Origin: Candidatus Daviesbacteria bacterium
Lineage (GTDB): Bacteria; Patescibacteriota; Microgenomatia; Daviesbacterales; UBA10151
Assembly (NCBI GenBank): GCA_028715175.1
Contig: JAQUSJ010000001.1
Span: 472,368-536,367 of the forward strand
Length of the DNA stretch: 64,000 nt
Reading direction: 5' to 3'
In this document: piece after piece, positions 6,950-46,728 of the stretch
Position numbering within the stretch: position 1 is the stretch's first letter
How the letters are laid out: every line of letters starts with the position of its first letter
Made by a program: the position numbers and the translations under genes
The notes under the pieces: model-generated
What the model saw: the letters and a program-made list of their open reading frames with translations, nothing else
Databases searched by the model: none
Told to the model about the DNA's origin: nothing

Positions 6950-7023
6950 GCCGCGTTCGTCTAGTGGCCTAGGACGTTGGGTTTTCATCCCAGAAATCAC
7001 GGGTTCGACTCCCGTACGCGGTA
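6950..7023 (+). tRNA. tRNA-Glu (anticodon TTC)
   Basis: Hand-folded cloverleaf: acceptor GCCGCGT/ACGCGGT, D loop with GG, anticodon stem TTGGG/CCCAG, loop TTTTCAT, T loop TTCGACT; no encoded CCA. Confidence 0.8.
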
Positions 7024-7135
7024 CTAGCTCCAAAATTTAATCCTTGCGATTAAATTTCTGGAGATACTACTTCGTTAGAGTGAATCCTAGCTCGAAGAGC
7101 GGTTCGCCATCCGCCTTTGGCGGATGATCTGCGTT

Positions 7136-7151
7136 CTCCCGTACGCGGTAC
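7136..7151 (+). repeat. direct repeat of the tRNA-Glu 3' end (ctcccgtacgcggtac) followed by CCA; attL/attR-like scar
   Basis: Identical 16-mer at 7009-7024 (inside tRNA) and 7136-7151. The second copy continues with cca, while the intact gene continues with cta. Confidence 0.6.
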
Positions 7152-7163
7152 CAGAATTACAGA

Positions 7164-7955: not shown

Positions 7956-8645
7956 ATGGCAAATTGCGAACAACAAACAGGCTTTTATGGGTTGGTTTCC
8001 AGAGTTAAAAGCGTGAATTGTAGATGTGGGCCAGGGATAAAATTTAATGATGTTAATCTAGCTAGATGGTATCCTCTAGATGTGCTTTGGAAAATGTTGA
8101 AATCAACAGGCAGGGGTGGAGATATGAGGGATATAGGTGGAACTGCTGTTCATCATGTGATTTATGATGATCAAATTAATGAGGGGGATATCAAATGGTT
8201 AAGTTCCCAATCAAAGTTTGGTTTGGAAAGATTTTTCAATAATTTAATTATTGCAGATGAAACAAGAGTTTTAGAAGTCATAAGGAATGATAGTTTTGCA
8301 TTAGAAAAGCCAGAGAATAAATTACACACATTAACTAGACGTTTGTCAGATTTGTTAGAAGTATTACCACATGGTTTATCAGCTGGATTACTGCTGGCAG
8401 TTGCAAACCCTTATTTTAGGAAGGTAGAGACAATGGATATTTCACAAGCACAGAAGACTCTAAATTATGCTAGAGATGCATTTGTTTTTCTTCCACCAGA
8501 CGCAAGACTTGATATTTTTGGCGAAATGGTTCAACTTTCCCCAGGTCCAAATGGTACTGCACGAAAGTTCTTGAGGTCAGTTGCTTTGAGTAATGGAGAT
8601 GCAGCAATTCCTTATAATGAACTGTTGCAATTAGTAGGAACTTAA
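7956..8645 (+). CDS. hypothetical protein (lysine-poor)
   Basis: 229-aa ORF preceded by a tataat-like box; no motif recognised; lies between tRNA scars. Confidence 0.45.
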   Translation: MANCEQQTGFYGLVSRVKSVNCRCGPGIKFNDVNLARWYPLDVLWKMLKSTGRGGDMRDIGGTAVHHVIYDDQINEGDIKWLSSQSKFGLERFFNNLIIADETRVLEVIRNDSFALEKPENKLHTLTRRLSDLLEVLPHGLSAGLLLAVANPYFRKVETMDISQAQKTLNYARDAFVFLPPDARLDIFGEMVQLSPGPNGTARKFLRSVALSNGDAAIPYNELLQLVGT

Positions 8646-8710
8646 ATGGCGAAAAAGCCTCTTAAGAAAAATTGAAGAAGTTAATGGCACGGAGCCACTA
8701 TTTCTTTTTG

Positions 8711-8782
8711 TGATCCGGCAGGGATTCGAACCCTGGACCAAGAGCTTAAAAGGCTCCTGCTCTACCGCTGAGCTACCGGACC
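8711..8782 (-). tRNA. tRNA-Lys (anticodon TTT)
   Basis: Reverse complement GGTCCGGTAGCTCAGCGGTAGAGCAGGAGCCTTTTAAGCTCTTGGTCCAGGGTTCGAATCCCTGCCGGATCA; anticodon loop CTTTTAA; T loop TTCGAAT. Confidence 0.8.
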
Positions 8783-9030
8783 AAGATATTTTTTAACCAA
8801 TCTCGACCTATATGTGACTTTAGGTACTTTTCTCTTTTTAATGCTTCTTGTCTCGTATTGTACTCTTCCTTATAAACTACATTCCATGGGCCCTTATTTA
8901 TTTTAGTATAGCTTTTAATTTTACTAGGTAACAAACCATTATGTCTTGCTAGTCTACTTTCTAAATTCCCTGTTTGCCCAATGTATATTTTACCAGTTGT
9001 TTTACTCTTAATTACATAAACACTGTACAT
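8773..9030 (-). CDS. GIY-YIG nuclease family protein (YhbQ/UPF0213-like, 85 aa)
   Basis: YVIKS..GKIYIGQTGNLESRLARHN matches the GIY-YIG core; 3' end overlaps the tRNA-Lys 5' end by 10 nt. Confidence 0.8.
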   Translation of the reverse strand: MYSVYVIKSKTTGKIYIGQTGNLESRLARHNGLLPSKIKSYTKINKGPWNVVYKEEYNTRQEALKREKYLKSHIGRDWLKNILVR

Positions 9031-9072
9031 AAACTAATAGAACCAATAGCTTAAAAGTCCGGCTGCGCCGGA

Positions 9073-9094
9073 TCTACCGCTGAGCTACCGGACC
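9073..9094 (-). repeat. 22-bp duplicate of tRNA-Lys(TTT) nt 1-22, followed by a CCGGC/GCCGG hairpin
   Basis: tctaccgctgagctaccggacc is identical at 8761-8782 and 9073-9094; the two copies flank the GIY-YIG gene. Confidence 0.65.
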
Positions 9095-9141
9095 TCGAAT
9101 GTATTGTACTAAATTTAAGCTGGATTTGCTATGATTTATCT

Positions 9142-10104
9142 ATGTTCTTCGGTCTGAACTGGGTTGATTTAGTGATTATCGGAATACTTCTCCTTTTTGC
9201 CCTGGAGGCTTTGGGCCGCCCTTTAATTTTAGAACTATTGGATTTTGCCAGCTTCCTTTTGGCAGGTATCTTATCCTTTAGTTACTACAATCTTCCTGCC
9301 AAATTTTTTGAAAGCCAGTTTCATATTCCCCATGGACTTACCCTGGTGCTGGGTTTTATGACTGTCTGGTTTTTATCTGAAATTGTTTTTTATTTGTTGG
9401 TTAGGTTCATTTTACCAAAGATCCCTAAGTTTAGGATCCTTCGGTCTAAAGTTTTATCTGCAGTTCCGGCAATGCTTAGGAGCTTGATTTTTATTGCCTT
9501 AGTTTTAGTGATGGTGGCAACTTTCCCTATCCAGCCTGCTATTAAAAAAAGCGTTCTGGATTCCAAAATTGGCAGCCGGATATTAAAAGCTGCATACGGA
9601 TTGGAATCTCCTGTCAAGAAAGTTTTTGGAGGAGTGGCTAATGATTCCCTGACTTTTTTGACTATAGAACCCAGGACAAATGAAAAAGTTAACTTGGGTT
9701 TTCAAACTACTCAGGTATCCCTTGATAGCGCTTCGGAAGATAAAATGATTGAGATGGTAAATAAAGAAAGGGTCAGCAGGGGAATCAGGGCCTTAGTGTT
9801 TGACGTTAAGCTTCGGGATATCGCCCGATCTCACAGCGAGGATATGTTTAAAAGAGGTTATTTTTCCCATTATTCACCTGAAGGTCAAACTGTAGCTGAT
9901 CGGGCTTTGAATGCGGGAGTGGATTTTTTGGTAATCGGTGAGAATTTGGCATATGCCCCAAGCGTGGAATTGGCCGGGCAAGGGTTGATGAACTCCCCGG
10001 GCCACAGGGCAAATATACTGTCTGCTGATTATGGAAGAATTGGGATAGGCGTAATGGACGGGGGAGTTTACGGTAAGATGTTTACCCAGGTATTTACAAA
10101 CTAG
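9142..10104 (+). CDS. fusion protein: CvpA-like membrane domain plus CAP/SCP (YkwD-like) domain
   Basis: N-terminal multi-TM region; C-terminal GHRANILSADYGRIGIGV motif of SCP/CAP. Confidence 0.6.
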   Translation: MFFGLNWVDLVIIGILLLFALEALGRPLILELLDFASFLLAGILSFSYYNLPAKFFESQFHIPHGLTLVLGFMTVWFLSEIVFYLLVRFILPKIPKFRILRSKVLSAVPAMLRSLIFIALVLVMVATFPIQPAIKKSVLDSKIGSRILKAAYGLESPVKKVFGGVANDSLTFLTIEPRTNEKVNLGFQTTQVSLDSASEDKMIEMVNKERVSRGIRALVFDVKLRDIARSHSEDMFKRGYFSHYSPEGQTVADRALNAGVDFLVIGENLAYAPSVELAGQGLMNSPGHRANILSADYGRIGIGVMDGGVYGKMFTQVFTN

Positions 10105-46468: not shown

Positions 46469-46510
46469 GGAGAATTAAAAGTTACTACAAAGCAAGAGTG
46501 AGTTGCTTGT

Positions 46511-46540
46511 GACCCCGGAGCGATTTGAACGCTCGACCCA
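46511..46540 (-). other. tRNA 3'-half-like fragment (T arm GAGCG-TTCAAAT-CGCTC + acceptor 3' strand CGGGGTCA) next to a GC hairpin; no matching 5' half
   Basis: Minus-strand sequence gtcgagcgttcaaatcgctccggggtca. The adjacent ccccgcctctggcgggg hairpin (46551-46567) is part of the same observation. No complementary GACCCCG 5' acceptor was found. Confidence 0.4.
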
Positions 46541-46589
46541 TGGATAATACACTCCCCGCCAGAGGCGGGGCAAGAGTCCATAGATGCTG

Positions 46590-46661
46590 TGAGCCGGGTG
46601 GGATTCGAACCCACGGCCAATGGATTAAGAGTCCATTGCTCTACCGCTGAGCTACCGGCCC
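46590..46661 (-). tRNA. tRNA-Lys (anticodon CTT)
   Basis: GGGCCGGTAGCTCAGCGGTAGAGCAATGGACTCTTAATCCATTGGCCGTGGGTTCGAATCCCACCCGGCTCA; anticodon loop CTCTTAA. Confidence 0.8.
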
Positions 46662-46728
46662 ATTGTTGTATATTCTAACAAATTGAGAGATCCTTGCGCC
46701 ACCGCTAAAGCTACGGCGGCACGCGGTC

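Follow-up and report, generated by a model that had tools for sequence, protein, structure and literature searches.

The DNA analyzed here is a stretch of 64,000 nucleotides (nt), called the window below, from a metagenome-assembled genome of Candidatus Daviesbacteria, a member of the Microgenomates within the candidate phyla radiation (CPR). On its minus strand, the window carries a cassette at the gene for tRNA-Lys(UUU). It consists of a gene for an 85-amino-acid (aa) GIY-YIG nuclease and a partial copy of the same tRNA, interrupted by a short GC hairpin. Comparison with related loci showed that this tRNA-Lys site displays a clean insertion/deletion polymorphism of about 312 bp. On balance, the evidence leans towards a homing-like selfish cassette that targets tRNA genes and keeps one tRNA copy intact, by a mechanism that we deduce from comparisons of sequence. 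The parts of the cassette, in window positions as for all cassette coordinates in the text, are as follows.

8710/8711-8782, minus strand: intact tRNA-Lys(UUU) gene (ARAGORN; Rfam RF00005, 72.2 bits, full length).
8773-9030, minus strand: gene for the 85-aa stand-alone GIY-YIG nuclease of the UPF0213/Slx1-like clade (Pfam PF01541).
9031-9041, minus strand: spacer or 5′ untranslated region (UTR) of 11 nt between the ATG and the partial tRNA copy (sequence).
9042-9057, minus strand: right arm of the pseudo-tRNA, a copy of tRNA nt 32-47 (repeat search, local alignment).
9058-9072, no strand assigned: GC hairpin of 15 nt, which reads TCCGGC-GCA-GCCGGA on the minus strand (sequence and hairpin search).
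9073-9094, minus strand: left arm of the pseudo-tRNA, an exact copy of tRNA nt 1-22 (repeat search, alignment with relatives).
9095-9141, minus strand: native tRNA leader and putative promoter of 47 nt (block conserved in the window and in the related loci L081, L082, and L083).

The initial annotation of this region had reported the tRNA-Lys(TTT) gene, two copies of the first 22 nt of the tRNA, a YhbQ/UPF0213-like GIY-YIG gene whose stop overlaps the tRNA 5′ end by 10 nt, and a CCGGC/GCCGG hairpin. All of these were recovered. The 22-mer TCTACCGCTGAGCTACCGGACC occurs exactly at 8761-8782 and 9073-9094, as had been claimed, and gave 0 matches in 100 shuffles; a copy with one mismatch lies in the second tRNA-Lys gene of the window (46640-46661). 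The final codons of the open reading frame (ORF), GTC CGG TAG (V R stop), are tRNA nt 2-10, with the TAG stop made of nt 8-10, and the ORF including its stop shares 10 nt with the tRNA 5′ end. The statement that only the gene and the hairpin lie between the two 22-mers did not stand up. The duplication runs past 22 nt, and the insert therefore also holds the anticodon loop and the 3′ strand of the anticodon stem. The right arm (9042-9057) is identical to 8737-8752 at 15 of 16 positions and comprises the anticodon loop CTTTTAA, the anticodon-stem 3′ strand, and the variable region; its local alignment with the tRNA scores 50, with a shuffle maximum of 24. Thus, the exact 22-bp direct repeat is real, but it belongs to a duplicated tRNA region of about 46-53 nt that is split by the hairpin. 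The hairpin stands in for about 8 nt of the tRNA copy (nt ~24-31), namely the D-stem 3′ strand, nt 26, and the anticodon-stem 5′ strand. Because 15 nt replace about 8 nt, the offset of the second repeat block differs by 7 nt.

The spacer contains an in-frame TAG two codons 5′ of the ATG. In the leader, TACAAT is found at 9103-9108 (minus strand), and beyond it, towards 9144, comes the start of the divergent CvpA-CAP gene. An Rfam search of 8500-9300 at a permissive threshold (E ≤ 1) matched the tRNA alone: it revealed no intron, and it assigned the pseudo-copy to no known RNA family. The hairpin followed by CTTTT was not called as a terminator by a terminator scan. Three promoter-like matches inside the ORF correspond to chance level (1.8 ± 1.6 expected). 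The 3′ arm of the hairpin, GCCGGAC, is also complementary to the 5′ acceptor strand GTCCGG of the tRNA, and an RNA fold of 9028-9101 (minus strand) favors a longer alternative helix (-24.5 kcal/mol, z = -2.96). This helix was rejected as a general feature, as it is tied to the GGTCCGG acceptor and is impossible at most other loci, e.g., L009.

For the comparison of filled and empty sites, 80 metagenomic loci encoding the neighboring CvpA-CAP protein were fetched. In L082 and L083 (82% and 77% aa identity of CvpA, respectively), which are two of the three closest relatives showing the tRNA side, the leader is followed directly by an intact tRNA-Lys(UUU), with no GIY-YIG gene and no hairpin. The leader common to the window and these two loci reads CATAG.TAAATCATAGCAAAT...AATTTAGTACAATA. 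The alignment of the window with the empty relatives shows one clean gap of ~300 nt, and the insert is 312 bp long. In the window, the leader joins the partial copy, with the intact tRNA following 312 bp downstream. The native tRNA 5′ end therefore stayed in place: the left arm (9073-9094) occupies the position that the tRNA 5′ end has in cassette-free relatives. This bears out the initial description of an insertion into a tRNA gene that regenerated the 5′ part of the tRNA and left the original fragment upstream. Among loci with a CvpA identity of at least 63%, the ORF was found at the tRNA-Lys site in the window only. In L081 (the closest relative, 83%), L103, and L117, a different insert of ~130 nt without an ORF is present at the same tRNA-Lys site (L081:697-891, L103:2750-2900). 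These inserts begin with a copy of tRNA nt 1-18 and carry three hairpins, i.e., GTTCTGCAC-GAA-GTGCGAAC; GGGAGTC-TAAAT-GACTCCC; and TAGCCGC-GATA-GCGGCTA or ATCCGCC-GTA-GGCGGAT. Their central hairpin is confined to the three loci, and the inserts of L081 and L103 have no Rfam match. Since other inserts occur at the same tRNA-Lys, the tRNA 5′ region is a recurrent insertion site. A second filled/empty case was found at a tRNA-Glu gene of more distant relatives, where L127 carries a distant GIY-YIG ORF together with a short duplicate of the tRNA 3′ part, and L128 and L129 are empty.

The same arrangement recurs well beyond this locus. A protein search returned 94 homologues of the 85-aa ORF, many of which end in ..GR, ..VR, ..RP, or ..VAQW, that is, in translated tRNA 5′ ends. 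A scan of a genome collection with an alignment of the closer homologues confirmed 273 relatives. The best 80 loci were taken, one per species, and the ORF counts given here cover the 84 ORFs in these best 80 of 273 loci. A co-oriented tRNA gene adjoins 72 of the 84 ORFs: an intact tRNA follows immediately in 63 cases and precedes in nine. Among the other 12 ORFs, five stand in arrays and five at contig ends. The junction of ORF and tRNA is an overlap of exactly -10 in 31 cases and of -38 in six; in the rest, there is a gap of 0-15 nt and the ORF has its own stop. The adjoining tRNAs are Lys(UUU) (31), Lys(CUU) (27), Asn (8), His (2), and one each of Glu, Cys, Pro, and Arg. Directly before the ATG, a partial copy of the same tRNA was present in 49 of the 63 loci with an intact tRNA directly after the ORF, a strongly positive answer to the question, raised by the initial annotation, whether other small GIY-YIG genes are flanked by duplicated tRNA segments.

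The common design consists of tRNA nt 1-23, a GC hairpin, the anticodon loop and anticodon-stem 3′ strand of the host tRNA, and the ATG. The hairpin is TCCGCC-AGCT-GGCGGA or TCCGGC-nnn-GCCGGA at a fixed tRNA position. In a mirror layout (L050, L061, L074), the intact tRNA comes first, then the ORF, and then a pseudo-copy whose first part extends from between tRNA nt 8 and 15 to nt 23 and whose second part, beyond the hairpin, is nt 32-73. The two layouts are probably circular permutations of one unit, made of the ORF and a hairpin-interrupted pseudo-tRNA. Asn and Glu variants have the hairpin in the T-loop, a D-loop position was also seen, and in the Pro variant the whole anticodon arm is replaced by the hairpin. 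Tandem ORFs occur in L019; their copies are 100% identical and form the only identical ORF pair found. At L057:2410-3074, a GIY-YIG ORF is surrounded by a tandem array of five or more hairpin-interrupted pseudo-tRNA units, repeated every 84 nt, that runs into the contig end. Tandem hairpin units without an ORF were also found in L071 and L053; in all, mirror layouts, tandem arrays, or ORF-less units were observed at L050, L061, L074, L076, L079, L073, L019, L057, L071, and L053. In 26 of 65 cases, the nearest-neighbor ORF is located at a different tRNA or anticodon. The distribution of the family is patchy, covering CPR, Nitrospirota, Ignavibacteria, and Deltaproteobacteria, and the tRNA-Asn cassettes outside CPR come from Nitrospirota, Ignavibacteria, and others. 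An anticodon-nuclease decoy was considered as the function of the partial copy and rejected, as the Asn and Glu partial copies have no anticodon loop.

The hairpin was examined for covariation in 38 loci, which were picked by their tRNA 5′-end match and not by the hairpin. All 228 of 228 pair cells hold standard pairs. Double compensatory changes (14 cells) affect three of the six pairs, with C-G, G-C, and U-A at one position. None of 500 shuffles reached the observed level, and slid registers fall to 15-57% paired. By hand, 66 hairpin units with seven stem variants were counted as the recognizable entries in the output of a loose pattern that also caught many random sites. All are Watson-Crick paired save one terminal mismatch, and G-T occurs in none. 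Such stems fit a hairpin or cruciform at the DNA level at least as well as an RNA hairpin. Over the 833 kb of DNA fetched in total, 120 hairpins of the family type were counted, 96 of which have flanks matching a tRNA of the same locus in an automatic flank test; inspection added ~11 more with tRNA-like flanks at contig ends or in arrays, which gives ~107 of 120. The arms behave differently from the hairpin. Identity of the 5′ arm is 97% with the host tRNA vs. 77% with tRNAs of other loci, and for the variable 5 nt of the 3′ arm the values are 90% and 60%. Unlike these host-following arms, the hairpin stays the same from Microgenomates to Parcubacteria and Saccharibacteria. Between the hairpin and the ATG, 0-6 differences were counted, against 10-24 predicted from the synonymous rate of the adjacent ORF. 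In view of this constraint, the partial copy is a functional cis element and not a decaying relic. Therefore, the displaced fragment of the initial annotation does represent the native 5′ end that stayed upstream, but it is not passive, being a conserved, hairpin-interrupted element under selection.

Two further loci deserve mention. Compared with L086, L098 has a 30-nt insertion at 2840-2870 that is essentially just the hairpin (GTCCGCC-CAT-GGCGGAC); the surrounding non-tRNA leader, upstream of tRNA-Lys, is otherwise alignable with L086, and the insertion may be a hairpin-only mobile unit. In L154, a partial copy of the tRNA-Glu 3′ part without a hairpin, GGGGTTCGACTCCCCATGGCGCTGC, is found ~60-110 nt downstream of tRNA-Glu (1606-1678). 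Its acceptor strand fits the tRNA-Glu type of other genomes (L127-like) and not the adjacent tRNA, a hint that the arms were imported from a different host.

The window holds a single GIY-YIG ORF, at 8773-9030. Its product matches PF01541 over residues 1-74 (63.8 bits vs. a cutoff of 22.6), and no second Pfam domain was detected in the 85-aa protein. Y5, Y16, G18, R26, H30, N31, and E67 are invariant in 26 homologues. A profile search of the PDB gave 1YWL (EF2693, 4e-11) and 1ZG2 (BH0048, 4e-9), both UPF0213 proteins, followed by SLX1 and then I-TevI. The AlphaFold2 model (mean predicted local distance difference test score, pLDDT, 92.4) consists of a three-stranded sheet and helices. The best Foldseek match was the Slx1 nuclease domain (template-modeling score 0.65-0.71, root-mean-square deviation 1.8-2.7 Å, 35% identity), and UPF0213, the I-TevI catalytic domain, and UvrC-N came next. 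The protein is thus a member of the GIY-YIG superfamily and of its single-domain UPF0213/Slx1-like clade, as the YhbQ/UPF0213-like label had implied. The NCBIfam model of group I intron endonucleases reached 25.8 bits vs. a cutoff of 56, and the PHROG and NCBIfam homing-endonuclease models gave weak matches below cutoff. An exact-sequence look-up of the ORF found no record. In nine family pairs, the ratio of nonsynonymous to synonymous substitution rates (dN/dS) of the ORF was 0.05-0.17, which indicates strong purifying selection. According to the titles of PDB entries, Slx1 is a structure-selective nuclease for branched DNA, and for this reason we regard the hairpin as the likeliest site of action. 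The conserved hairpin would be the likeliest DNA site for recognition by the predicted structure-selective nuclease.

Relics of the same kind accompany two of the three other tRNA genes of the window.

7025-7155, plus strand: relic without an ORF, a 131-nt insert after tRNA-Glu(UUC) 6950-7024 (alignment, hairpin search).
46509-46579, minus strand: relic downstream of tRNA-Lys(CUU) 46589-46661 (minus strand) (hairpin search, alignment).

The end of the tRNA-Glu relic (7101-7151) reads GGTTCG-cca-[TCCGCCTTTGGCGGA]-tgatctgcgtt-CTCCCGTACGCGGTAC and is a hairpin-interrupted copy of the tRNA 3′ part. It is composed of GGTTCG at 7101-7106, the hairpin TCCGCC-TTT-GGCGGA at 7110-7124, and CTCCCGTACGCGGTAC at 7136-7151, which matches the tRNA 3′ end at 16 of 16 positions. 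In L085, the same tRNA-Glu is joined directly to the flank ..CAGAATT.., without the insert. The tRNA-Lys(CUU) relic contains GGACTCTT, the hairpin CCCCGCC-TCT-GGCGGGG (46554-46570), and a diverged T-arm/acceptor 3′ part, GGGTCGAGCGTTCAAATCGCTCCGGGGTCACA. Its alignment is weak (score 29 vs. a shuffle maximum of 25). The T-arm and acceptor stems still pair yet differ from those of the intact tRNA, which suggests that the relic derives from another tRNA-Lys allele. Upstream of tRNA-Lys(CUU), a weak piece resembling tRNA nt 1-30 (46682-46714, minus strand) scores barely above shuffles. The tRNA-Arg gene of the window has no such relics as neighbors. Directly downstream of the cassette-bearing tRNA-Lys lies a 229-aa ORF (7956-8645, plus strand) with no Pfam match and no homologue in the fetched syntenic loci; this downstream flank is not conserved among relatives.

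On these grounds we propose the following course of events. The functional unit would be the GIY-YIG gene together with a pseudo-tRNA whose host-matching arms are split by a GC hairpin of 15-16 nt. A tRNA-like arm would recombine with a chromosomal tRNA gene, and the unit would thereby be placed as a partial direct duplication; the trigger could be a nick or break made by the nuclease, or a circular excision product. The layout of the window (pseudo-copy, ORF, intact tRNA) would result if the crossover falls in the 5′ arm, and the mirror layout (intact tRNA, ORF, pseudo-copy) if it falls in the 3′ arm. Survival would be limited to products that retain one intact tRNA. The cassette would leave no room for a promoter of its own and would be read from the tRNA promoter, in one transcript with the tRNA. 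Since the stop codon (U8-A9-G10) lies in the tRNA, RNase P cleavage would remove it from the mRNA, and the resulting non-stop mRNA would keep nuclease levels low. The hairpin would inactivate the spare tRNA copy and split the direct repeat. Recombination between the 5′ arms would excise the cassette precisely, and decay would leave hairpin-bearing tRNA fragments. We infer mobility from the presence/absence polymorphism, the tandem arrays, the ORF-less relics, and the switches of tRNA type.

A wider proposal, which we put forward tentatively and which may or may not hold in full, is that such units form a class of minimal mobile elements not described before. In it, a bare Slx1-like GIY-YIG nuclease of ~85 aa and a GC hairpin of 15-16 nt would colonize tRNA genes by partial duplication. 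The pseudo-tRNA would serve as homology arms and nuclease target, the tRNA promoter would drive the gene, and the U8-A9-G10 stop would limit its expression. The class would be widespread in CPR/Patescibacteria and also occur elsewhere.

Several observations weigh against a selfish, homing-like cassette. The catalytic domain accounts for all 85 aa, which leaves no DNA-binding module. No recent transposition or transfer was found: the closest homologue of the ORF among 5.8 billion clusters is only 77% identical. A scan of viral contigs gave distant matches to the N-terminal motif of phage GIY-YIG genes and no close relatives. Presence and absence do not separate a gain from a precise loss through the direct repeats, and in L009 and L142, whose CvpA is 41-45% identical, a GIY-YIG cassette is found at the syntenic tRNA-Lys. 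Purifying selection and the occupancy of the same site in distant relatives fit a gene retained by the host equally well. An intact target is regenerated 312 bp from the hairpin-interrupted copy, so that classical immunity by target disruption would probably not apply. Finally, a promoter scan did not call the leader (9095-9141) as a consensus sigma-70 promoter, so its promoter role is putative.

The strongest of the other explanations takes the gene as a resident that benefits the host. An ancient Slx1-like nuclease would be inherited vertically within the tRNA-Lys unit, the pseudo-tRNA would be its 5′ UTR or regulatory leader, and the empty relatives would be losses through the repeats. The low dN/dS, the conservation of the hairpin-to-ATG segment well past the synonymous rate, the filled site in the distant L009 and L142, and the absence of near-identical copies elsewhere among the clusters searched all agree with it, and direct repeats permit a scar-free deletion. 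Against it stand the spread of the ORF family over tRNA genes for Lys(UUU), Lys(CUU), Asn, His, Glu, Cys, Pro, and Arg, with the nearest relatives at different tRNAs in 26 of 65 cases, and the existence of two mirror-image layouts and tandem arrays. The ORF-less hairpin relics at other tRNAs of the window, the restriction of the ORF to the window within the closest clade (CvpA at least 63%), and the patchy occurrence across CPR, Nitrospirota, Ignavibacteria, and Deltaproteobacteria also speak against it. We consider this explanation rather unlikely.

A transposable unit directed by the hairpin, in the manner of REP/RAYT or IS200/IS605, differs from the homing-like cassette mainly in what the nuclease cuts. 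Here, the GIY-YIG enzyme would cut at the hairpin in single-stranded DNA or in a cruciform and mobilize the DNA linked to it, and the tRNA duplications would be by-products of insertion into loop-folding tRNA DNA. The hairpin is the sole conserved non-coding sequence that travels with the ORF, its Watson-Crick stems without G-T fit a structure at the DNA level, and the protein fold is nearest to the structure-selective nuclease Slx1. Hairpin-only units or arrays exist in L057 and L071, and L098 differs from L086 by the 30-nt hairpin-only insertion in a non-tRNA leader. The hairpin is always in or next to a loop (D-loop, D/anticodon junction, or T-loop), which varies by tRNA type. Against this stands the lack of an HUH or other transposase and of any defined element termini apart from the ORF. 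Moreover, 96 of the 120 hairpins (~107 by inspection) are in a tRNA-like context, and therefore the hairpin is not a genome-wide repeat; the match between arms and host tRNA speaks for homology-driven events. Such a unit is unlikely.

An integrase-island scar (attL/attR), a tRNA intron with a homing endonuclease gene, and a chance repeat or assembly artefact are excluded and keep next to no probability: integration into tRNA genes is well known and leaves partial tRNA repeats, but the indel is just 312 bp without an integrase and the duplicated part is the 5′ and not the 3′ part of the tRNA; the tRNA downstream is full length, and no intron or further RNA family was matched in Rfam; and the chance expectation of the repeat is zero, with the design recurring in dozens of independent assemblies.

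If the homing-like cassette is confirmed, it would represent a new way for a selfish nuclease gene to inhabit an essential gene, by part-duplication and a hairpin-marked spare copy instead of splicing or attachment (att) sites. It would account for many of the tRNA gene fragments and tRNA-overlapping ORFs in the very small CPR genomes and for some contig breaks at tRNA genes. The conserved hairpin would offer a testable substrate for the large, uncharacterised UPF0213/YhbQ family of mini-nucleases related to Slx1. The stop codon within the tRNA would be a compact case of mRNA fate coupled to tRNA processing, and an 85-aa nuclease with a defined structural target could have practical interest.

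In the literature searched on GIY-YIG/UPF0213 proteins with tRNA genes, on CPR, on tRNA fragments, and on the hairpin sequence, we found no description of this arrangement, and there is a substantial chance that the cassette represents a new class of minimal mobile element. Fragments of tRNA genes have been reviewed (bioRxiv 10.1101/2022.07.05.498093). The tRNA genes of Patescibacteria contain group I introns, some of them with homing endonuclease genes (PMC13011429); this recent survey does not refer to GIY-YIG, and a term search of its text gave no hit for Lys, hairpins, or duplications. The cassette shares with these introns the host group, the tRNA gene as a target, and the logic of endonuclease-driven mobility. 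In contrast to tRNA group I introns, the tRNA of the cassette is uninterrupted, no ribozyme was found, and function is kept by duplication and not by splicing.

Integrase islands and prophages extend over kilobases and carry a gene for a tyrosine or serine recombinase. The tRNA gene into which they insert is regenerated, with its 3′ part duplicated. The cassette resembles them in its tRNA target, in the replacement segment that keeps the gene functional, and in the partial tRNA copy that forms a direct repeat. It differs in its length of 312 bp, in having no recombinase, in the duplication of tRNA nt 1-47 (the 3′ part in the mirror layout), and in the hairpin within the spare copy. In the case of REP/RAYT (REPIN) and IS200/IS605 elements, a conserved short hairpin goes with one small nuclease gene of the HUH type, and hairpin-only copies are non-autonomous. 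The cassette likewise pairs a short hairpin with a small nuclease, and hairpin-only copies exist. However, its nuclease is GIY-YIG and not HUH, its hairpins are almost confined to tRNA-like sequence, and there are no defined inverted termini.

At the protein level, the cassette nuclease is close to UPF0213/YhbQ and to the nuclease domain of Slx1, with the single-domain size of about 80-110 aa typical of UPF0213, the catalytic residues, and the best sequence and structure matches. Slx1 has an extra zinc-finger domain and needs Slx4. To our knowledge, neither UPF0213/YhbQ proteins nor Slx1 have been described as tRNA-linked or as part of mobile cassettes.

Of the known systems, a free-standing homing endonuclease gene, e.g., segB in the tRNA cluster of phage T4, comes closest to the cassette in the way it works. 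Even so, the cassette lacks hallmarks of both homing genes and integrase islands, namely a DNA-binding module and a recombinase. SegB is reportedly a larger, phage-borne protein with a DNA-binding part; the cassette, unlike it, encodes a bare catalytic domain of 85 aa on a bacterial chromosome. We know of no partial tRNA duplication, hairpin, or tRNA overlap in the case of SegB. The T4 protein is a free-standing GIY-YIG homing endonuclease whose gene lies among tRNA genes and is not intronic, and it promotes the inheritance of its own gene and of the flanking tRNA region, with presence and absence varying between relatives (PMC2330249). The cassette is similar in these respects, being a non-intronic GIY-YIG gene located at tRNA genes with a presence/absence polymorphism among relatives.

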